From a virus (Duplodnaviria; Heunggongvirae; Uroviricota; Caudoviricetes), in the IMG/VR virus record IMGVR_UViG_2654587996_000003: a stretch of 13,003 bases of DNA; one strand, given 5' to 3'. Each line of letters begins with the position of its first letter. Within the stretch, counting starts at the first letter, position 1. Under the pieces are notes generated by a model, which saw only the letters and a list, made by a program, of their open reading frames with translations, ran no database searches and was not told where the DNA came from. Both the position numbers and the translations under genes were made by a program. Shown one piece after another: positions 1-13,003 of the stretch.

Positions 1-1074
1 TCATTTGTTGATTTCAATTTTGTCCCATTCCCGTCCACGGCTGTCCCTATACCGCGCCGCCATTGAATCTGATTTATGCCCGAGAAGACGTTGAGCAAAC
101 TTATCGCCAATCTGGTTCAGGTATAGCCTCGCCGACAGGCTACGCAGTTCATGGAATGTTGGCGGGTCTCCATCAAATGAGAGTCCAGATGCATTTCTCG
201 CTTTTGTAAAATACTTCGATACTGTTTTCGGGGAAAGTGGTTCGTGATGCGTTGATGCAATTATTGTTTCACTGCTGCTGGTCTCCCTGCATTTCTGTAG
301 TGTATCAGCCAATGAGATATTGAGCGCGTCAATCGTTAGCGTCAGCGGAATGGCGAGCTTAGCCCCTGTTTTACTCTGTTCAATGTGAAGATGGTTGTCG
401 TTTATGTCTGACCATTTCATTCTGCACAAATCGCCCACTCTCTGCCCTGTAACGACAGCCAAATCCATTGCCAGCCTCAGCCAGATTGGGAGAGGTTCGG
501 CTGCATGGTAAATCGCGACATACTCATTAGCTGTCAGCCTTGAGCGCCTTACTTCTGACTTTGCTGTGCGGGTTGCTGTTACCGGATTCGTTGCCACATG
601 CCCCTCGGCTATTGCCTCACGAAAAACGTCAACAAGGGTTGACCTGATTAATTTTGCGGAAGCCGCTTTACCTTCTGCTACGTAGGTGTTTAGCATTGCT
701 GCCACCTCTTTCGTTGATATGTCAGCGAGCGGTTTGTCCGGCAATTTTCTTCGGATTGCCCTGATTTTGCTGGCGTAGTCGAGTAGAGTTTTCGGCCTGA
801 TACCCCTCTCGCTGAGGATTGTTTCATATCGGTCAAGCCACGCATGAAGAGTGATTACGTCAGCGCCTTTAATTCTGTCTATCAGTGACTCACGCCTGTT
901 CTCGGATAGTAACTCAATATTGGCCTGAATAGCCTCTGAAACTGCTATCCTTCTGTCTCTGCCTAATCCGAACTCTTTACCCGTCCTTGGGTCCCTGTAG
1001 CAGTAATATCCATTGTTTCTTATATAAAGGTTAGGGGGTAAATCCCGGCGCTCATGACTTCGCCTTCTTCCCAT
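1..1074 (-). CDS. int: Lambda-family tyrosine integrase (Int), apparently intact
   Basis: 357-aa ORF recognisably lambda-type Int (MGRRRSHERRDLPPNLYIRNNGYYCYRDPRTGKEFGLG arm-binding N-terminus). Catalytic residues appear present: R in VVTGQRVGDL, K in EQSKTGAK, H-x-x-R in PTFHELRSL, H in LLGHKSD, Y in AARYRDSRG. 23-nt overlap with xis, as in lambda. Diverged from lambda Int at many positions, so a relative rather than lambda itself. Confidence 0.95.
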   Translation of the reverse strand: MGRRRSHERRDLPPNLYIRNNGYYCYRDPRTGKEFGLGRDRRIAVSEAIQANIELLSENRRESLIDRIKGADVITLHAWLDRYETILSERGIRPKTLLDYASKIRAIRRKLPDKPLADISTKEVAAMLNTYVAEGKAASAKLIRSTLVDVFREAIAEGHVATNPVTATRTAKSEVRRSRLTANEYVAIYHAAEPLPIWLRLAMDLAVVTGQRVGDLCRMKWSDINDNHLHIEQSKTGAKLAIPLTLTIDALNISLADTLQKCRETSSSETIIASTHHEPLSPKTVSKYFTKARNASGLSFDGDPPTFHELRSLSARLYLNQIGDKFAQRLLGHKSDSMAARYRDSRGREWDKIEINK

Positions 1075-3336: not shown

Positions 3337-3819
3337 TTATTTGATAAGAAGTGAAGGTTTCCCAACTTTGAGTTGAGCGCCGGGGATATTTATTCCTGCT
3401 TTTAGTTGGTGTTTGATTGCCAGTTTGTCGGCTTTAATTGTCGTTTCAAACTCAACGTATTCAGGAGGAAGGGCGCTTGAGTCGATGATTTCTACAGTTT
3501 CTGACGGTTTGCGGATTGTTACTTGGTGAATACCTGCTCGAATCTTTTTCTTGCCAACCATTTCAAGCGATGACGCTATATACGCCATAATGCTGTCAAT
3601 CTTATTTTGAATTACTGCGGCTCGTTCATTCAGTGACTTTGCCTCGTCCTTGAGGCGTTCAGCATAACCAGATTCATTTTTAATAATGGCGAGAAGTTGC
3701 TCTATTTTATCGGTAAATTCTCCTTCCATTCCTTCTATTGTGTCAGCAATCATCTCTGGCTCTAAATCTGAATCCATCAATTTTGCGTATTCATTGGCTA
3801 TTTCATATAGTTTGCTCAC
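3337..3819 (-). CDS. Gp157-like (or Mu-Gam-like) accessory protein of a RecT recombination module
   Basis: ORF-track 3337..3825, where the M is a TTG codon. A better start is GTG at 3819, preceded by GGAGG at 6-nt spacing. Coiled-coil-like N-terminus plus a beta-rich C-terminus, sitting directly downstream of recT; recalled from memory as the siphovirus Gp157 family. Start overlaps the recT remnant stop. Confidence 0.6.
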   Translation of the reverse strand: MSKLYEIANEYAKLMDSDLEPEMIADTIEGMEGEFTDKIEQLLAIIKNESGYAERLKDEAKSLNERAAVIQNKIDSIMAYIASSLEMVGKKKIRAGIHQVTIRKPSETVEIIDSSALPPEYVEFETTIKADKLAIKHQLKAGINIPGAQLKVGKPSLLIK

Positions 3820-4372
3820 TGGCAACCTCCAGTTTCGCTTTGCATTCTATGTAAATGGCTTGTACGTTCTGCTGCAATTTCATTCCAGATGTCAGGCGAT
3901 ATGCTTCTGCAAAATATCGCTTCAAATCATCCATGTTTTCTGCCTGAGCCATTTCATCACAAAGAAGTTGTGCTTTTTCCATTATTTCCTGCTGGCGTTT
4001 CCGTTCATCTTCGCGGATATCTTCCTCTGATTTGTGCGGCATAACTGGTTCCTGATGCATACCTTCATCTTCGTTAAGCAGGTGAATGGCATTATCCAGT
4101 CGCTGGGCTTTAGGCCAGTATTTGCTGGCGCGTTTAACTATGGTTTTACGCGCCATCTCTTCCCAGAATGTCTTCCACGGTCCATTCTTTGCCTTGCTCG
4201 TTGCTTCCACAGCTTTAATTTCTGCCAGACTCATTTCTTCAGTCAGGTAGTCACCATCTGCTGTTTTAACCGTGCAATAACCTCCAACAATAGAGCCTCG
4301 CTCACCAAATGCGTTGTATTTGTGGGTTGGTGCTGAATCAAGGCCATTTGATTCATAGGTGTCGTTTGAGTA
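3803..4372 (-). pseudogene. recT: RecT-family single-strand annealing recombinase, 5-prime truncated (C-terminal ~189 codons only)
   Basis: The ORF-track fragment (3803..4234) contains ..NGPWKTFWEEMARKTIVKRASKYWP.., matching the RecT motif ..NGPWVTHWEEMAKKTAIRRLFKYLP... I hand-extended the frame upstream of the Met (..[35 protein letters not shown]..) and it stays RecT-like until an in-frame stop at 4373-4375. No N-terminal ~150 aa and no start codon. Confidence 0.7.
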
Positions 4373-4488
4373 TCAAAGGCGCATGTGATCAGCTACGGCG
4401 CTGGACATACGCTGGCGGTAAGCAATGGAAAGGGCTGATGACTCGCCGCGAGATTGAGCGTGAAGTCTGTTTGTGGGGGCAACAATGA
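4366..4488 (+). pseudogene. Phage lysozyme (endolysin R, P21/DLP12-type) 3-prime remnant, last ~40 codons only
   Basis: Hand translation of the frame ending at TGA 4486-4488 gives ..[38 protein letters not shown], which I recognise as the C-terminus of P21/RrrD-type lysozymes. The stop overlaps the Rz ATG (ATGA), as in lambdoid lysis cassettes. An in-frame stop at 4357-4359 and the recT-derived sequence lie immediately upstream. Confidence 0.6.
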
Positions 4489-4928
4489 GCAGAGTAACCG
4501 CGATTATCTCCGCTCTGGTTATCTGCATCATCGTCTGCCTGTCATGGGCGGTTAATCATTACCGTGATAACGCCATCACTTACAAAAAGCAGCGTGATAA
4601 GGCCACATCCACAATCGCTGACATGCAGAAGCGTCAACGTGATTTAGCTGAACTCGATGCCAGATATACAAAGGAGCTTGCTGATGCTAACGCGACTATC
4701 GAAAGTCTTCGTGCTGATGTTTCTGCTGGTCGTAAGTGGCTGCACGTCAAAGCAGTCTGTCCGGACAAGCATAAAACCACCGCCGCCTCCGGCGTGGATG
4801 ATGCTTCCAGCCCCAGACTTACTGACACCGCTCAACGGGATTATTTCGTTCTCAGAGAGCGCATCGAAACCATAACTAACCAATTGAATGGCCTGCAAGA
4901 GTATGTGAGATCACAGTGTTCATATTAG
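4485..4928 (+). CDS. Rz: Rz i-spanin (inner-membrane spanin subunit)
   Basis: ORF-track 4473..4928 (GTG). The ATG at 4485 gives [34 protein letters not shown]..., near-identical at the N-terminus to lambda Rz; N-terminal TM helix followed by a coiled-coil region. Confidence 0.9.
4684..4875 (+). CDS. Rz1: Rz1 o-spanin lipoprotein, embedded in the +1 frame of Rz
   Basis: ORF-track 4657..4875. Internal ATG at 4684 gives [20 protein letters not shown]|TSKQSV...KPPPPPAW...TPLNGIIS: lipobox Cys at residue 20, proline-rich mature part, matching lambda Rz1 in length and motifs. Confidence 0.85.
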
Positions 4929-4966
4929 AAAAGTCTTATCATAAGATTTTTGTATATGGATGCATT

Positions 4967-5341
4967 ATGTCTCAATACGCGCGCGCCGCTTTAATTGCTT
5001 ATTATTTGGTTGCTGATAATTCAATATCCCCTCGTGATGCATGGGATGCTGCTGTCGCTGAGGTTACAGAAAGCGAATCGGCAAGAAAGAAGGGATGCCC
5101 AAGGGCAACGTTTCTCGCTCTGGCGGATAGCGGTTATCTGAAGAATGTAAAACCACATCATGGGGAGAAAAAGATCGGTAAGTTGTACCAAAGGGCAATT
5201 GAAGTTGCGAATCTGATTCTTGATTTACCCGGAATTAGCAAAGCTGAGCTAGTTGATAAAACTTGCTATAAAGACAGGCAAGGGGCTTATGACATTGCTC
5301 TAACTCTCGCTCAGTGCGGATTACTCCAGCGTCCTCAATAA
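4967..5341 (+). CDS. Hypothetical protein (~124 aa) between the lysis cassette and cos; no family recognised
   Basis: ORF-track 4916..5341 (GTG overlapping the Rz end). First ATG at 4967 gives MSQYARAALIAYYLVADNSISPRDAWDAAVAEVTESESARKKGCPRATFLALADSGYL...; start choice is uncertain. Followed 19 nt later by a hairpin plus T-tract terminator. Confidence 0.5.
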   Translation: MSQYARAALIAYYLVADNSISPRDAWDAAVAEVTESESARKKGCPRATFLALADSGYLKNVKPHHGEKKIGKLYQRAIEVANLILDLPGISKAELVDKTCYKDRQGAYDIALTLAQCGLLQRPQ

Positions 5342-5359
5342 GATATTAAGTGATTTATG

Positions 5360-5383
5360 GCCTCGCTTTTAGCGGGGCTTTTT
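5360..5383 (+). terminator. Putative intrinsic terminator after the 124-aa ORF
   Basis: gcctcgc-tttta-gcggggc (7-bp stem with one G-U pair) followed by TTTTT at 5379-5383. Confidence 0.5.
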
Positions 5384-5770
5384 CATATCTGAATCTCACC
5401 ATGCATATCATCACCTGACTGGAACGTCAGGAGAATTCGTTACGGGGATTCGATAAAGGTATTCAAGCCTGACACATTATGCGCTGTATCGTCGCCGTAT
5501 TCCCGCATTAACCATGACCGTAGCCCGACGGGGAATTCCTTCTGCGCGAGTGTGCGGGAATAATCAAAAACGATGCACACCGGGTTTTTACCGCGTTTAT
5601 GATTCGCGGGTTTGTCCCTCATGCTCGCCAGTCCTGTGCGGGGGTGGAAGAAACAGGACGTGTATTCAGGTCTGTGCGACCGTGGTCGCACGACTTTGGT
5701 CGTTCAGATATTAAATCCCATTGCGAAGTAAACCCGAATTGCTGGCGGGTCCTTTCCGGCAATCCAGAAC

Positions 5771-5965
5771 GTTACGGGGCGGAAGGCGCGCGGGTTTTCG
5801 CTATTTATGAAAATTTTCCGGTTTAAGGCGTTTCCGTTCTTCTTCGCCGTAACTTAATGTTTTTATTTAAAACACCCTCTGAAAAGAAAGGAAACGACAG
5901 GTGCTGAAAACGAGCTTTTTGGCCTCTGTCGTTTCCTTTCTCTGTTTTTGTCCGTGGAATGAACA
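5771..5965. promoter_or_regulatory. cos: Lambda-type cos site: cosN (about 5777-5788) plus cosB with terminase-binding R elements, immediately upstream of Nu1
   Basis: Sequence gttacg GGGCGGAAGGCG CGCGGGTTTTCGCTATTTATGAAAATTTTCCGGTTTAAGGCGTTTCCGTTCTTCTTCG...GAAAGGAAACGACAG...CTGTCGTTTCCTTTC matches the lambda left end and cosB as I recall them, except within the 12-nt cosN core (lambda GGGCGGCGACCT). Inverted R2/R1 CGTTTCC elements are present. Confidence 0.75.
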
Positions 5966-6700
5966 ATGGAAGTCAACAAAAAGCAGCTGGCTGACATTTT
6001 CGGCGCGAGTATCCGTACCATTCAGAACTGGCAGGAGCAGGGAATGCCCGTTCTGCGGGGTGGTGGCAAGGGTAATGAAGTGCTTTATGACTCTGCCGCC
6101 GCCATAAAATGGTATGCCGAAAGGGATGCTGAAATTGAGAACGAAAAGCTGCGCCGGGAAGTTGAAGAACTGCGGCAGGCCAGCGAGACAGATCTCCAGC
6201 CAGGGACTATTGAGTACGAACGCCATCGACTTACGCGTGCGCAGGCCGACGCACAGGAGCTGAAAAATGCCAGAGACTCCGCTGAAGTGGTGGAAACCGC
6301 ATTCTGTACTTTCGTGCTGTCGCGGATCGCAGGTGAAATTGCCAGTATTCTCGACGGGATCCCCCTGTCGGTGCAGCGGCGTTTTCCGGAACTGGAAAAC
6401 CGACATGTTGATTTCCTGAAACGGGATATCATCAAAGCCATGAACAAAGCAGCCGCGCTGGATGAACTGATATCGACTTTCTCCGGGGATTATCTCCGCG
6501 TAACTGACAACAAGGGGAAAACGCACGACGTGCTGACCGGAAGTGATGACGGTCGCCACAGCAACACGTCTCTGACGTGGGGAGCTGGCGTGCAGTTTAA
6601 CCCGACCGAATCCGTGGCCATTGATATTGCTTATGAAGGCTCCGGCAGTGGTGACTGGCGCACTGACGGTTTCATCGTGGGTGTCGGTTATAAATTCTGA
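5966..6700 (+). pseudogene. nu1: In-frame chimera: terminase small subunit Nu1 (residues 1 to ~169) fused to the C-terminal ~75 residues of outer-membrane protein Lom
   Basis: Residues 1-169 (MEVNKKQLADIFGASIRTIQNWQEQGMPVLRGGGKGNEVLYDSAA...NKAAALDELI) match lambda Nu1. From about nt 6474 the protein switches to ..TSLTWGAGVQFNPTESVAIDIAYEGSGSGDWRTDGFIVGVGYKF, the Lom/Ail-family C-terminal beta-strands. A strong terminator follows, as after lom in lambda. Confidence 0.8.
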
Positions 6701-6753: not shown

Positions 6754-6764
6754 GTGGGGTGAAT

Positions 6765-9700
6765 ATGGCAGTAAAGATTTCAGGTGTACTGAAAGACGGC
6801 ACAGGAAAACCGGTACAGAACTGCACAATCCAGCTGAAAGCAAAACGTAACAGCACCACGGTGGTGGTGAACACGCTGGCCTCAGAAAATCCGGATGAAG
6901 CCGGGCGTTACAGCATGGACGTTGAGCACGGTCAGTACAGCGTTATTCTGTTGGTGGAGGGGTTCCCGCCATCACATGCCGGGACCATTACCGTGTATGA
7001 AGATTCCCGACCCGGTACGCTGAATGATTTTCTCGGTGCCATGACGGAGGATGATGCCCGTCCGGAGGCACTACGCCGTTTTGAACTGATGGTGGAAGAG
7101 GTGGCGCGTAACGCGTCCGCGGTGGCACAGAACACGGCAGCCGCGAAGAAGTCAGCCAGCGATGCCGGCACATCAGCCCGTGAGGCGGCAACCCATGCGA
7201 CTGATGCTGCAGGCTCAGCACGTGCAGCCAGCACATCAGCCGGGCAGGCCGCGACGTCGGCTCAGTCAGCATCTTCCAGCGCAGGAACGGCATCAACAAA
7301 GGCCAGTGAAGCGGAAAAAAGTGCTGCCGCTGCAGAGTCCTCAAAAAGCGCGGCAGCCACCAGTGCCGCTGCGGCGAAAACGTCGGAAACGAATGCGGCA
7401 GCGTCACAACAATCAGCAGCCACTTCTGCATCCGCCGCGACCATGAAGGCGTCAGAAGCTGCCACCTCAGCCCGGGATGCGGCGGCCTCAAAAGAGGCAG
7501 CGAAATCATCAGAAACGAACGCATCATCAAGCGCCAGTAGTGCCGCTTCCTCGGCAACGGCAGCAGGCAATTCCGCGAAGGCGGCAAAGACGTCCGAGAC
7601 AAACGCCAGGTCTTCTGAAACGGCAGCGGGACAGAGCGCCTCGGCTGCGGCAGGCTCAAAAACAGCGGCTGCGTCGTCTGCCAGTGCAGCGTCAACAAGT
7701 GCCGGGCAGGCCTCAGCCAGTGCCACCGCCGCCGGAAAATCGGCAGAAAGTGCCGCATCGTCTGCTTCAACAGCCACAACGAAGGCTGGCGAAGCCACTG
7801 AACAGGCCAGCGCAGCAGCGAGGTCTGCTTCCGCAGCGAAGACATCCGAGACGAACGCGAAAGCGTCGGAAACCAGCGCAGAATCCTCAAAAACGGCTGC
7901 CGCATCGTCCGCCAGTTCGGCGGCGTCATCGGCATCATCGGCGTCTGCTTCAAAAGATGAGGCGACCAGACAAGCGTCCGCAGCGAAGGGCAGCGCCACG
8001 ACAGCATCCACGAAGGCGACAGAGGCAGCTGGCAGTGCGACGGCGGCAGCACAGAGCAAAAGTACGGCGGAATCCGCGGCAACGCGCGCCGAGACAGCGG
8101 CAAAACGGGCAGAGGATATTGCATCCGCCGTGGCGCTTGAGGATGCGAGCACGACGAAAAAGGGGATAGTACAGCTCAGCAGCGCGACCAACAGCACGTC
8201 TGAAACGCTGGCGGCAACGCCAAAGGCAGTAAAAGCAGCCTATGACAATGCAGAGAAACGTCTGCAGAAAGACCAGAACGGCGCTGATATACCCGATAAG
8301 GGACGCTTCCTGAACAACATTAACGCGGTCAGTAAAACAGACTTTGCTGATAAGCGTGGTATGCGTTATGTGCGGGTTAACGCTCCTGCAGGTGCAACAT
8401 CTGGAAAATATTATCCTGTTGTTGTTATGCGTTCTGCTGGCTCAGTAAGCGAACTGGCATCAAGGGTCATTATCACCACGGCAACGCGAACCGCAGGCGA
8501 TCCGATGAATAACTGCGAGTTTAACGGATTTGTTATGCCTGGTGGCTGGACTGACAGGGGGCGTTATGCTTATGGAATGTTCTGGCAATATCAAAACAAT
8601 GAACGAGCCATCCACTCAATAATGATGAGTAATAAGGGCGATGATTTGCGCTCTGTGTTCTATGTTGATGGCGCTGCTTTCCCTGTTTTTGCGTTTATCG
8701 AAGATGGCCTGTCAATATCCGCACCTGGTGCTGATCTCGTTGTTGATGATACGACCTATAAGTTTGGGGCAACAAATCCGGCGACTGAATGTATCGCGGC
8801 GGACGTTATCCTTGATTTTAAGAGTGGGCGTGGTTTTTATGAGTCCCATTCGTTAATCGTTAACGATAACTTGTCGTGCAAAAAACTTTTTGCCACAGAC
8901 GAAATTGTAGCGCGTGGTGGTAATCAGATTCGAATGATAGGTGGGGAGTATGGGGCATTATGGCGTAATGATGGCGCTAAAACTTACCTGCTGCTTACCA
9001 ATCAAGGTGATGTTTATGGTGGATGGAATACATTAAGACCGTTTGCTATTGATAACGCAACCGGCGAACTGGTTATTGGAACCAAGCTGTCTGCAAGTCT
9101 GAACGGTAACGCATTGACAGCAACAAAGCTGCAAACGCCAAGACGGGTTTCTGGTGTTGAGTTTGATGGTTCCAAAGATATTACTTTAACCGCCGCGCAT
9201 GTGGCTGCTTTTGCCAGAAGGGCAACGGATACATATGCCGATGCGGATGGTGGCGTTCCCTGGAATGCCGAATCAGGCGCTTACAATGTCACCCGCTCTG
9301 GCGACAGCTATATTCTGGTTAACTTCTATACCGGAGTCGGAAGTTGCCGGACCCTGCAGATGAAGGCGCATTACAGAAATGGTGGTCTGTTCTACCGTTC
9401 TTCAAGAGACGGTTATGGTTTTGAGGAAGACTGGGCAGAAGTTTATACCTCGAAAAATCTTCCACCAGAAAGCTACCCAGTCGGCGCACCAATCCCGTGG
9501 CCATCAGATACCGTTCCGTCTGGTTATGCCCTGATGCAGGGGCAGACTTTTGACAAATCTGCTTACCCGAAACTTGCAGCCGCTTATCCGTCAGGCGTGA
9601 TCCCTGATATGCGTGGCTGGACGATTAAGGGCAAACCTGCCAGTGGTCGGGCCGTATTGTCTCAGGAACAGGACGGCATTAAATCGCATACCCACAGCGC

Positions 9701-10115
9701 CAGCGCATCCAGTACAGATTTGGGGACGAAAACCACATCGTCGTTTGATTACGGCACTAAATCCACGAATAACACCGGGGCACATACACACAGTGTTAGC
9801 GGTACGGCTGCTTCAGCCGGTGCACATACCCATTCGATGACATTTGTTTCAGGTGGTTCCAGTGGTGCTCCGGGAAGTGGATCACCTGATTATTCTAAAT
9901 ACAGTGTTAACACTTCTTCTGCAGGCGCTCATACGCACTCTGTATCGGGTACTGCTGCAAGCGCAGGTGCACATGCACATACTGTCGGTATTGGTGCTCA
10001 TACGCACTCTGTTGCGATTGGCTCACATGGACACACCATCACCGTTAACGCTGCTGGTAACGCGGAAAACACCGTCAAAAACATCGCATTTAACTACATT
10101 GTGAGGCTTGCATAA
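6765..10115 (+). CDS. stf: Side tail fibre protein (Stf; StfR/lambda-Stf-like), apparently full length (~1116 aa)
   Basis: ORF-track 6759..10115 (GTG); ATG at 6765 gives [37 protein letters not shown]..., the conserved Stf N-terminus. Long Ala/Ser/Thr-rich repetitive shaft; C-terminal GAHTHS-repeat receptor-binding region; stop overlaps the tfa ATG. Confidence 0.9.
7110..8150 (+). repeat. Ala/Ser/Thr-rich quasi-periodic coding repeats within the stf shaft
   Basis: Recurring peptide blocks such as [69 protein letters not shown] and [26 protein letters not shown]-rich DNA here generates long stop-free ORFs in other frames on both strands. Confidence 0.6.
9778..10045 (+). repeat. His-containing GAHTHS(V)[12 protein letters not shown] repeats in the stf C-terminal region
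   Basis: Repeated motifs [59 protein letters not shown]. The DNA copies differ at synonymous positions, so the repeat is conserved at protein level. Confidence 0.6.
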
Positions 10116-10699
10116 TGGCATTCAGAATGAGTGAACAACCACGGACCATAAAAATTTATAATCTGCTGGCCGGAACTAATGAATTTATTGGTGAAGGTGA
10201 CGCATATATTCCGCCTCATACAGGTCTGCCTGCAAACAGTACCTATATTGCACCGCCAGATATTCCGGCTGGTTTCGTGGCTGTTTTCAACAGTGATGAG
10301 GCATCGTGGCATCTCGTTGAAGATCATCGGGGTAAAACGGTTTATGACGTAGCGTCAGGGGACGCGTTATTTATTTCTGAACTCGGTCCGTTACCGGAAA
10401 ATGTTACCTGGTTATCGCCGGAAGGGGAGTTTCAGAAGTGGAACGGCACGGCCTGGGTGAAAGATGCAGAAGCAGAAAAACTGTTCCGGATCCGGGAGGC
10501 GGAAGAAACAAAAAACAGCCTGATGCAGGTAGCCAGTGAGCATATTGCGCCGCTTCAGGATGCTGCAGATCTGGAAATTGCAACGGAGGAAGAAACCTCG
10601 TTGCTGGAAGCCTGGAAGAAGTATCGGGTATTGCTGAACCGTGTTGATACATCAGTAGCACCGGATATTGAGTGGCCTGCTGTCCCTGTTATGGAGTAA
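10115..10699 (+). CDS. tfa: Tail fibre assembly protein Tfa
   Basis: 194-aa [57 protein letters not shown]..., near-identical to lambda Tfa as I recall it; start overlaps the stf stop. Confidence 0.92.
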
Positions 10700-10802: not shown

Positions 10803-11591
10803 TTAAGCATCACGTATTGCCAATCTGATTTTTGACTGATACCAATTGGGGCCTTCTGCAATTATTTCTTCCTCAACATGCATGATGGGATGCATTTCAA
10901 TTTCAGAGTTTTTGACTTTCAGATCTAGTCCATATTTTTTTGAAATTTGTAAAACTTCATTTTTGAAATCCTTATCTGCGAAAGGTGAAATCCTTATTTC
11001 TTCCAACAGATTATTAAGAGATACAGGGACTAGTTTTCCCTTTACAGGTGGAGTGTTAAAGGTATTCTCTTGAAAAATAGCTCTAAACTCTTTTTCGTAT
11101 TCGAAAGATGGTCTCTTGTTAAAGAATACATCTGATTCTGGATTGTATTGTTTTATCCAGAAATTTTTGACGTATTTTACGTGTTTTAATTGTAGTTTGT
11201 TTAGATTATTATTTTCAAGTTGGCTTTGGAGGTTTTTTTTCTTTGATTTTATGACAACGCCTTTAGCGGGGTTTTTACAATACAGCTTCCACATAGCTTC
11301 AGATTCATGTTCGTTACAATGCCAGCAACTTATATATGTCCTCTCGCTTATTTCCTTAAGTGTCTTTAAATTGAATGCCATGAAAGGATCTAAGTCCATG
11401 CCGGCACCATGAGTAGCGCATAGTTTTTCCTGTGTCTCAATGAATTTTTTATAGCCAGTATGTCCCCAAGCAAATTCACCTTCGAACGGATCTTCAAAAT
11501 TTTTTGCTGAGCAAAAAAATAAAGCATTTTGTTCGAGTAACATAGAGAATTTCTCTATGTCAAGGTATCGCCATATATACTCAGTGTGCAT
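10803..11591 (-). CDS. Hypothetical protein (262 aa), DUF2971-like N-terminal motif; AT-rich cargo gene
   Basis: ORF-track 10803..11606, where the M is a TTG codon. ATG at 11591 is preceded by AGGAG at 5-nt spacing and gives MHTEYIWRYLDIEKFSMLLEQNALFFCSAKNFEDPFEGEF..., matching the Y.Y....l..lL....l.f.....F.DP.E block I associate with DUF2971. Lys/Asn-rich and visibly much more AT-rich than flanking phage DNA. Confidence 0.6.
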   Translation of the reverse strand: MHTEYIWRYLDIEKFSMLLEQNALFFCSAKNFEDPFEGEFAWGHTGYKKFIETQEKLCATHGAGMDLDPFMAFNLKTLKEISERTYISCWHCNEHESEAMWKLYCKNPAKGVVIKSKKKNLQSQLENNNLNKLQLKHVKYVKNFWIKQYNPESDVFFNKRPSFEYEKEFRAIFQENTFNTPPVKGKLVPVSLNNLLEEIRISPFADKDFKNEVLQISKKYGLDLKVKNSEIEMHPIMHVEEEIIAEGPNWYQSKIRLAIRDA

Positions 11592-11716
11592 GATAGCTCC
11601 TTGCAATATAACTATTTCTATCTGTTCATTTGTACTTAAAAAGGATTGAGTAGCCTGAACAGTTCTATCCGTAAATATACCAGATAGAAGAGTTGTACAA
11701 TAACAAATCCTCCGTA

Positions 11717-11800: not shown

Positions 11801-13003
11801 TTAGGCTTGTACCAACGCTTCTGTTTCTGTGAGTGAAATTTGATAGCGTTTTACTGCCTCAGCAAAGGCGTGCGCGGCATCTGCATTTGATACCATATAT
11901 TCTTCAGTTACCCCTGTTTGAGAATGGAAAGTAATATTTCCATAAATGCAAATAGGGATTTGGTAGTTGTCTTTAAAACGACGGTCTGGTGAGCCATTCT
12001 TATTCGTTTTCGCCCATGTATAACCATCTATGCGTGAGTCACTGGGAACACCTTCTTCCTCATGGAATCTTAGATATTCTGAACTAATTTGTAATTCGCG
12101 TAAATCAATCAGAGCGAATGCTCCATCAGCTCGTGGTATGACTGCAACTCCAGGATAAAGCAAAATATCGTCTCCATTTACATTTTCAAACCTCATCGCA
12201 CGCCCTGTAAATTGAATGAAATCCGTTGAACTAAAATCAAAGGTAACTGGGTGACGATTAACAGACCGGGTTGCTAATGTTCTTTCAGCAAACTGGTCTG
12301 TAGCTTTATCTGCAGTAATATCCCATTTTTTGACACTCGATTTTAACATATCAAATGCATGGACCATCGCTGCATATGCGCGCTGTGAAGCATCACTGCT
12401 CTCGAATGTTATGGCTATTTTTGTGCTGTCTTCCCATGAAACTAGGCGAGATATCTCAGCTTGGGTTAGGGGGAGTAGTGTCTCAAGTTCTGCGATGCGT
12501 CGTTTGTAAAACCAACGGAATAGACTTGATTTGCGTCGAGCCAGCTCGCTTTTTTGTTTTGATTCTTCGGCAAGAGCCTCTTGAAGATCTGCTTTTATCT
12601 CTGCTCTTTGTTCTCGTGCTTTAGCAATCAAATCTCGTAAAGGTAAAAGGGAGGTACTTGTAAGGACTTCTACCGAAGCGCTGGATATTTCATTCATGCC
12701 AGCTACAGGCATATATATTTTAGCGTTCGATGGTGTGTTTTCTGGAGATGACCCAGACTCCAAATGAGGTTCTGTAGGGGCTGGATTTAATGGATTGGTA
12801 ACTGAGTATCCATCATCATAGGGCAAGGTAGGTGTAGTATAAGATAAGCCTGTGCCCGGTAATCCGACAGTTGCTCTAACCCCTTTTTTACCAACATTGA
12901 CAGTTGCGCCAGGCACGCCAATGCTTGCACTTATTCCACGCTTGCCAATGTTGAGTCGAACGCCAGGAAATAGAGTAAAGGTTTGTCTGAAACGAAGAGA
13001 CAT
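11801..13003 (-). CDS. Hypothetical protein (400 aa) with N-terminal DUF4236-like domain; central coiled-coil-like segment; C-terminal ~200 aa unknown
   Basis: Start codon is the last three bases of the window. N-terminus MSLRFRQTFTLFPGVRLNIGKRGISASIGVPGATVNVGKKGVRATVGLPGTGLSYTT has the repeated G-x-R/K...G glycine-rich pattern I associate with DUF4236. A charged helical stretch (REQRAEIKADLQEALAEESKQKSELARRK) follows. Composition is lower in GC than the tail-fibre genes. Confidence 0.65.
   Translation of the reverse strand: MSLRFRQTFTLFPGVRLNIGKRGISASIGVPGATVNVGKKGVRATVGLPGTGLSYTTPTLPYDDGYSVTNPLNPAPTEPHLESGSSPENTPSNAKIYMPVAGMNEISSASVEVLTSTSLLPLRDLIAKAREQRAEIKADLQEALAEESKQKSELARRKSSLFRWFYKRRIAELETLLPLTQAEISRLVSWEDSTKIAITFESSDASQRAYAAMVHAFDMLKSSVKKWDITADKATDQFAERTLATRSVNRHPVTFDFSSTDFIQFTGRAMRFENVNGDDILLYPGVAVIPRADGAFALIDLRELQISSEYLRFHEEEGVPSDSRIDGYTWAKTNKNGSPDRRFKDNYQIPICIYGNITFHSQTGVTEEYMVSNADAAHAFAEAVKRYQISLTETEALVQA

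Follow-up and report, generated by a model that had tools for sequence, protein, structure and literature searches.

The stretch of DNA considered here is IMG/VR record IMGVR_UViG_2654587996_000003, a viral sequence of 13,003 nucleotides (nt) that is referred to below as the window and in whose numbering all coordinates are given. Between the spanin genes Rz/Rz1 and a cos-like site it carries a plus-strand gene of 124 codons, running from an ATG at 4967 to a TAA at 5341 and beginning 38 nt after Rz, as the original prediction had proposed from the bare letters. That prediction recognised no family for the product; however, the protein matches Pfam DUF6979 (PF22399) at 99.5 bits against a gathering cut-off of 27 bits (E=2e-28; residues 1-121 on profile positions 1-127 of 127) and PHROG 5039 over its full length (E=2.1e-67; residues 1-124 on positions 1-124 of 124), and RefSeq already lists it as WP_039264502.1, a 'DUF6979 family protein' that is identical in E. 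coli M18 and about a dozen further genomes. We regard it as virtually certain that the window gene is a known entity, a member of a family that is catalogued and uncharacterised. An NCBIfam profile search with the window protein returned no match, and the defence hidden Markov models (HMMs) of PADLOC-DB 2.0 returned 0 families at E values up to 1.

The frame is open from 4916 to 5341, which yields 141 residues from a GTG at 4916 or 124 from the internal ATG, and the start codon had accordingly been called ambiguous. The start is ATG 4967, because the Pfam profile aligns from its first position at that methionine and the PHROG profile from end to end, and because all homologues, even those of only about 30-50% identity, begin at the equivalent methionine, as does the RefSeq entry. 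The GTG was rejected, as the extension it would add overlaps Rz, falls outside both profiles and has no counterpart in any homologue. What does stand of the earlier doubt is the weak ribosome-binding site of the ATG: the Shine-Dalgarno element is a GGA at 4958-4960, 6 nt ahead, in a spacer that spans 4929-4966 from the Rz stop.

The gene is real and under purifying selection. It is present in 247 of 5426 complete E. coli genomes (4.6%), where it is single-copy and chromosomal with 80-100% nucleotide identity, and it is carried by 50 viral contigs of IMG/VR and by the viable lambdoid phages 4A7, Lambda_4C10, 1W, 3W, D2, mEp460 and SfI. All eight of the eight copies that were aligned and translated are intact 124-codon open reading frames (ORFs), and for diverged pairs, with synonymous divergence (dS) up to 0.43, the ratio of nonsynonymous to synonymous change (dN/dS) is 0.2-0.4. 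A chance ORF is excluded by these ratios, by the two profile E values (2e-28 and 2e-67) and by the intact frames in all relatives examined; loss of coding conservation, which the original prediction had named as a ground for abandoning the gene, is not what the relatives display.

The slot after Rz and the surrounding prophage remnant

The position of the gene is well conserved amongst lambdoid prophages. By tblastn, an Rz homologue lies 38-41 nt upstream in 46 of the 50 viral contigs, and the spacer has 0-2 mismatches in 46 of 50, although the carriers differ in their lysis and packaging genes, with three holin/endolysin sets and three terminase types (Nu1/A, DUF1441-type, and HNH plus P27-type). 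One exceptional contig (L122:1330-3945) has three minus-strand ORFs of 523, 115 and 225 amino acids between Rz and the DUF6979 gene, an insertion that looks like a member of the IS66 family by the sizes and order of its ORFs alone.

Comparison by blastn with the Bor-carrying phage PhiR11_1 finds homology over 4371-4859 and again over 5480-5657, with a break between, and the PhiR11_1 segment opposite 4860-5479 carries Bor on the opposite strand. Because the homology stops at 4859 and restarts at 5480 with Bor in between, the DUF6979-plus-hairpin segment and the bor segment are alternative (allelic) occupants of one slot, and 4860-5479 is a replaceable cassette composed of a variant Rz 3' end, the spacer, the DUF6979 gene and its terminator. 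No second gene is found within it, and neither Pfam nor NCBIfam gives a Bor profile match, in keeping with the earlier claim that a gene unlike Bor occupies the place of bor. The small minus-strand ORF that follows (5440-5622) is not part of this cassette, since it lies mostly in DNA common to bor-type phages, the homology to PhiR11_1 resuming at 5480. The gene is a mobile cargo cassette of lambdoid phages. Its region has the atypical base composition by which morons are recognised, with a GC content of 0.41-0.46 over 4900-5400 versus 0.51-0.53 in Rz and 0.55-0.57 near cos/Nu1.

Variation within the cassette is unevenly spread. Polymorphic columns make up 50% of the gene (62% of third positions) versus 16% of the last ~200 nt of Rz and 13% of the 38-nt spacer, and the amino-acid changes cluster at residues 6-21, 62-70 and 113-124. 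Since its polymorphism is about three times that of the neighbouring Rz end and spacer, the gene appears to exist as old, diverged alleles that are swapped between phages through conserved flanks.

The window as a whole is a decayed lambdoid prophage adjoining mdtA, as is apparent from the RefSeq annotation and the list of ORFs (Table 1). About 1.6 kb round the gene is 100% identical to the chromosome of E. coli M18 and to those of about a dozen further E. coli strains, from mouse, cow, human and chicken. Two deletions have shaped the remnant. The first, at the joint of recT and the endolysin gene (R) near 4372, has removed the immunity-replication-nin-Q-holin region, so that neither Q nor pR' is left; the second, which created an in-frame nu1::lom fusion, has removed all head and tail genes between these two. 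The first ~170 residues of the fused product are like lambda Nu1 (MEVNKKQLADIFG...) and the last ~70 are the Lom C-terminus (...GFIVGVGYKF). In the cos-like site the 12 bases at the position of the cosN overhang are GGGCGGAAGGCG, the overhang of lambda itself being GGGCGGCGACCT, and the flanking cosB-like sequence fits the lambda pattern exactly; over 5745-6100 the window shares 94.7% identity with the pre-Nu1/Nu1 region of PhiR11_1.

Further features of the remnant lie away from the gene. A b-region gene on the minus strand (1720-2445) is annotated as a 'lysozyme inhibitor LprI family protein' and has an apparent signal peptide, MKNILLASLLVASPGAFA. Within tfa, the Rfam model RF02111 'IS009' matches over its full length above its gathering threshold (221.6 bits; 10458-10656, plus strand). 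The place downstream of stf/tfa, which holds the DUF2971 and DUF4236 genes, is another classical cargo position of lambdoid prophages.

Table 1. Features of the remnant prophage, in window numbering
Feature	Coordinates	Strand	Remarks
int	1-1074	-	xis, a few b-region genes and a Gp157-family gene also present
recT, 5'-truncated	3803-4372	-
Endolysin gene, 3' fragment	4372-4488	+	abuts truncated recT directly
Rz (i-spanin)	4485-4928	+	'lysis protein' in RefSeq
Rz1 (o-spanin) ORF	4657-4875	+	embedded in Rz, other frame; lipobox LVVSGC, proline-rich C-terminal part
DUF6979 gene	4967-5341	+	ATG to TAA
Intrinsic-terminator-like hairpin and T5	5359-5384	+	GGCCTCGC-TTT-AGCGGGGCT; stem-loop 5359-5379, 9 pairs, 6 of them G-C, loop of 3, then TTTTT
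Small ORF	5440-5622	-	converges on the terminator; 'hypothetical protein' in RefSeq and in phage 4A7
cos-like site	5777-5821	+	pattern match; precedes the Nu1-like ORF and bounds the slot on the right
Nu1::Lom fusion ORF	5966-6700		in-frame; 'Ail/Lom family outer membrane beta-barrel protein' in RefSeq
stf	6759-10115
tfa	10115-10699
Cargo gene downstream of stf/tfa	10803-11606	-	DUF2971 domain protein in RefSeq
Cargo gene downstream of stf/tfa	11801-13003	-	DUF4236 domain protein in RefSeq

Terminator, promoter and mode of expression

The original prediction had suggested an autonomous cargo gene that is closed off by its own hairpin and T5 terminator. The terminator is readily recovered by a terminator scan at the expected place (5359-5384), where the hairpin folds at -17.8 kcal/mol (z = -3.2 versus shuffles); the stem starts 17-19 nt past the stop codon, the figure varying with the pair taken as its first, and the hairpin ends ~390 nt ahead of the cos-like site at 5777. 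It is found in about 26 of the 50 close relatives (viral contigs), namely those with Nu1-type DNA following, and is absent from the SfI/HNH-P27 terminase type, in which the last ~35 codons of the gene are a different allele. The hairpin thus belongs to one cassette variant (the Nu1/cos type) and not to the gene as such. No sigma-70-like site scoring at least 9/12 was detected by a promoter scan of the plus strand upstream of 4967, the best candidate found there by eye being an 8/12 match (TTCATA-17-TAAGAT, 4919-4947).

The gene is co-directional with S-R-Rz and with the packaging genes, that is, with the late operon. The late transcript of lambda is initiated at pR' and modified by Q, and as such reads through Rz, ignores terminators and continues across cos. 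Because the gene points the same way as the late genes and no promoter dedicated to it could be recognised, we consider it reasonably probable that it is late-operon cargo rather than an autonomous moron. In an intact phage it would be transcribed from pR' by Q-antiterminated RNA polymerase along with the lysis and packaging genes, and the hairpin and T5 would then act as a stop for unmodified polymerase only. The window copy itself is probably a stranded passenger, weakly expressed or silent, because Q/pR' and the morphogenetic genes have been deleted around it.

Distant phage copies can be considered in the same light, as all of them are on the late-gene strand. Several lie between a Q-like antiterminator and the holin/endolysin/spanin genes (L091-096, L094/095, and the Dickeya-type L148), and one (L097) lies directly before TerS/TerL. 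One point against the late-operon reading emerges from the group L091-096, where ~10 nt separate Q from the start of the gene, which may share a transcript with Q instead of being transcribed from pR'. As a separate observation, the Q-holin cargo slot of a DUF6979-carrying prophage in E. coli Combat2C1 holds a gene for a DNA methyltransferase (L085:1087-2139).

A true autonomous moron would be expressed in the lysogen from its own promoter, would benefit the host through phage exclusion or some other lysogenic conversion, and would be insulated by the hairpin. That the segment is allelic with bor in the same slot, that it has its own terminator and that its GC content falls below that of the flanks all agree with such a gene. 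It is also the case that the ORF is intact, at 99.9-100% identity, in a remnant lacking Q that is shared by at least 12 genomes (from the mouse, cow, human and chicken isolates), and that cellular relatives are often found in defence islands. Nevertheless, retention in the remnant may simply be recent, given how nearly identical the copies are; the upstream region has no sigma-70-like site at the 9/12 threshold; roughly half of the close relatives are without the terminator; no PADLOC defence model matches; and the absence of a signal peptide, lipobox or transmembrane segment argues against a surface factor of the Bor kind. On this evidence we hold the autonomous moron to be rather doubtful: of the earlier claim, cargo in the bor slot and the terminator both hold, and autonomy is supported only in part.

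Two known systems help to place the cassette. Like the DUF6979 gene, lambda bor is a small cargo gene in the replaceable interval between Rz and cos, with a composition unlike that of its flanks. However, the DUF6979 gene lies on the opposite strand to bor and shares no homology with it, its product is cytoplasmic and begins MSQYARAALIAYY with neither lipobox nor signal peptide, and bor is a lipoprotein moron expressed in the lysogen whereas no promoter was detected for the DUF6979 gene. In phage phi80 the slot ahead of the packaging genes has been shown to serve as an immunity hotspot, a further point in favour of a moron, and is occupied by taiEcA, a divergent defence gene that is constitutive in the lysogen, and by atiEcA, a small, co-directional counter-defence gene that is dependent on Q (PMC11364771). 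The DUF6979 gene shares this hotspot and resembles atiEcA in being small and co-directional with the late genes, and by analogy Q-dependence would be expected of it; unlike taiEcA and bor it has the late-operon orientation, and the DUF6979 cassette has no divergent defence partner. When the window protein was searched by tblastn against 50,697 phage records, matches were obtained in nine, none of which is phi80.

Proximity to the lysis genes raises the question of whether the product is a lysis accessory that works with holin, endolysin and spanins. It does follow Rz/Rz1 directly in phages of E. coli, Shigella and Salmonella, and comes just before the holin in other phages. We consider this role very improbable, as the protein has no transmembrane segment or signal sequence, members of its family are common, in archaea and bacteria alike, at loci that have no lysis genes, its segment is allelic with that of bor, a gene with no part in lysis, and the same lysis genes occur in many lambdoid phages that do without it. 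Homology to a known lysis accessory or to an ORF of the lambda right arm, which the original prediction had said would count against its interpretation, was not found.

The protein and its family

The window protein has 124 residues, a mass of 13.6 kDa, an isoelectric point (pI) of 8.8 and a net charge of +3, and is predicted to be cytoplasmic. An AlphaFold2 (AF2) model built from a 12-sequence alignment is confident (predicted local distance difference test 91.2, predicted template modelling score 0.86) and all-helical; it comprises seven helices and two bridges of one residue each (58 and 120), and confidence is lower in the loop 60-70. A Foldseek search of the model gave nothing significant in the PDB (E of at least 1.8) or in BFVD (E of at least 0.9). 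The weak matches are a mixture of helix-turn-helix (HTH) domains, NusB-like domains, AhpD-like Cys enzymes, Cys-phosphatases and Ocr, and were set aside as noise, none being significant. PDB sequence searches with two profiles (12 and 60 sequences) likewise returned nothing beyond short matches due to chance (a CTPR design, a caspase-4 peptide). Profile comparison thus places the protein in a family, while structural comparison gives it no significant relative, and no solved structure appears, to judge from the model, to represent its fold.

The family is large. Searching 1.84 billion representatives gave 620 clusters at 50% identity (E<1e-3), and a word-indexed search gave 1295 clusters at 90% identity (E<1e-5); members come from many bacterial phyla as well as from Halobacteria, Thermoplasmata and Methanomicrobia. 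Its signature is a loop of the form S-x-S-x-[RQ]-x-K-G-C-P-[RK], which in the window protein is S36-x-S38-x-R40-K-K42-G-C44-P45-R46, together with a C-terminal motif, [ND]-G-Q-x-D or [ND]-x-Q-x-x-D, the window protein having D103, Q105 and D109. Nearly invariant in the family are W26, K42, C44, P45 and G56, and K-x-C-P-[R/K] is present in 233 of 242 members. The family is also basic, with a median pI of 9.2 and a net positive charge in 91% of members, which favours binding of a polyanion (nucleic acid, nucleotide or coenzyme A (CoA)) as a predicted property of DUF6979. Mimics of DNA of the Ocr/ArdA type are, by comparison, strongly acidic, and T7 Ocr is an early gene; a mimic of this type was ruled out for the window protein on the grounds of its charge, the median pI of the family and the non-significance of the structural matches.

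Some members are fused to other domains. Tandem DUF6979 proteins occur (P0166, L162:6001-6771), as do fusions to CoA_binding_2/CoA_binding (P0203, with 11 member sequences, and P0227, with 6; L161:2791-3564) and to a further, C-terminal domain of 348 residues (P0076, 476 residues in all), for which phmmer found no match in the PDB. An impression that this domain has a PD-(D/E)XK-like motif was dropped.

The fusion to CoA-binding domains, taken together with the invariant cysteine, hints at thiol or CoA chemistry, and one may ask whether DUF6979 is a thiol-dependent enzyme or carrier (redox, acyl/CoA or sulfur transfer) in which Cys44, at the N-terminus of a helix and flanked by Lys42 and Arg46, would be a reactive thiolate. 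The constancy of the K-x-C-P-[R/K] motif and the near-invariance of C44 and P45 would fit such an activity, and the top Foldseek matches in the PDB are all-helical Cys enzymes of the AhpD/CMD type. Those matches are, however, non-significant (E of at least 1.8, TM-score ~0.3), a second catalytic residue was not identified, conservation of a metabolic neighbourhood is not seen, and a lambdoid phage has no evident reason to carry an enzyme of this sort in the slot after Rz. We therefore judge this explanation quite unlikely.

Cellular neighbours and proposed function

For the cellular context of the family we sampled 81 loci, and 109 immediate neighbours were taken from 70 GTDB loci. There is no conserved partner, the 109 neighbours matching 125 Pfam families. 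Genes of restriction type nonetheless recur beside DUF6979 genes, and where they do they are always adjacent and co-directional. A McrB-like AAA_5 protein plus McrC lie directly downstream in a Bacillota metagenome-assembled genome (L011; with the 476-residue fusion as the DUF6979 gene and BREX PglZ/BrxL upstream), in Tenacibaculum crassostreae (L047; 5-nt gap) and in a Tenacibaculum sp. (L162; tandem DUF6979, with a type I restriction-modification (R-M) system and PDDEXK_4 upstream). An Mrr_cat endonuclease is directly downstream at L154 and at L155-157, the latter being a small island inserted after rpsI; an HNH protein is directly upstream of the DUF6979 gene at L159/160, beside cas4-cas1-cas2; type I hsdM is directly downstream at L028, L029 and L064; and a MmeI-type enzyme is directly upstream at L081. 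Models for type I methyltransferases match 3 of the 109 neighbours. Other loci place the gene beside AriA/PtuA-like ATPases, PDC-S33, or SNF2/NERD genes. In total, a restriction nuclease or R-M gene is the immediate co-directional neighbour at about 10 of the 81 loci (8-9 of them independent), where general knowledge of R-M gene density leads to a rough estimate of ~1% by chance.

The restriction-type neighbours have some features of their own. The Mrr_cat protein of L154 (6446-7468) and the McrB-like GTPase of L162 (7011-9776), which come from unrelated genomes, have the same N-terminal Pfam domain, DUF8426, whereas BLAST among the McrB and Mrr neighbours detected no shared N-terminal domain. 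When the Mrr, HNH and McrC neighbours were used as jackhmmer queries, the 70 GTDB loci yielded no additional copies. The PADLOC 'mad2' model matches 6 of the 109 neighbours; the matching proteins could not be traced, and this result was not used.

Neighbourhoods of this kind could also be those of a small transcription regulator, an unconventional helical DNA binder that controls adjacent operons, restriction and defence operons included, in the manner of C proteins or BrxR, and that in phages regulates phage or host genes. The basic character of the family, its typical position upstream of and co-directional with variable operons, and the great diversity of its neighbours, which is common for regulators, all have a place in such an account. 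However, neither profiles nor a significant structural match detect an HTH or winged HTH domain (C proteins, XRE, MarR, BrxR), and unlike C proteins and BrxR, DUF6979 has no HTH or WYL Pfam domain and sits, at most loci, away from restriction or defence operons. The structural matches are all below significance and cover only ~55-65 residues, the helix after the conserved loop (PRATFLALADSG) does not resemble a recognition helix, being hydrophobic and apparently buried, and the phage copy has no obvious target operon. No palindromic operator came to light, although no search was aimed at one. We consider a regulator unlikely.

Our preferred proposal, which we offer as possible and decidedly tentative, is that DUF6979 proteins are small nucleic-acid-binding modulators of restriction nucleases, and that the phage copies serve as a counter-defence factor. 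The link to restriction is drawn because cellular DUF6979 genes recur adjacent to McrBC, Mrr, HNH, type I and MmeI-type genes, and the link to nucleic acid because the family is basic and its K-x-C-P-[R/K] motif so widely kept. In this mechanism the conserved basic Ser/Lys/Cys-Pro/Arg loop would be the working surface of the protein, binding nucleic acid, and DUF6979 would act together with, or against, nucleases of restriction type. The phage copies would be orphan versions that modulate restriction as counter-defence during lytic growth. The high polymorphism of the gene relative to the end of Rz lends the locus an arms-race flavour.

A number of observations weigh against the proposal. About 85% of the cellular loci have no restriction or defence neighbour, and some of the contexts are plainly housekeeping; the association with restriction could simply be a consequence of the variable or mobile regions in which the genes reside. 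An invariant cysteine within so constant a motif would be expected of an enzyme or a ligand-binding protein sooner than of a protein inhibitor that evolves fast. Classical anti-restriction takes effect early, when DNA enters the cell, while the DUF6979 gene looks late. Known anti-restriction genes are frequent on plasmids, where this family is almost absent: no close relative was found there, and the only matches amongst 72,556 plasmid records were two distant ones, in an uninformative context rich in insertion sequences. Finally, our literature search found no paper that mentions DUF6979, PF22399, phrog_5039 or the accessions, and no experiment on the family.

In its fullest form the proposal would describe DUF6979 as a widespread bacterial and archaeal family of small, basic Cys-loop proteins of unseen fold that partner modification-dependent and type I restriction nucleases. 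Lambdoid phages would have captured orphan copies of the family and would use them, through late-operon expression, as anti-restriction or counter-defence factors of a new kind, possibly to keep host enzymes of the McrBC/Mrr type off replicating or newly modified phage DNA. We regard this broader picture as distinctly doubtful.

As a feature of the sequence, the gene is ordinary: an annotated DUF gene that a degraded lambdoid prophage carries at a familiar cargo position. It is valuable as a lead, in that it points to a large, uncharacterised family with no structural relative and a near-invariant, reactive-looking Cys loop, whose members recur both next to restriction genes of types IV and I and in cargo slots within the late regions of phages. 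As carriers such as 4A7, mEp460 and SfI are lambda-like phages of E. coli and Shigella, the restriction link is directly testable by standard genetics. If that link is true, DUF6979 would be either a new component of restriction systems or a new class of phage counter-defence.

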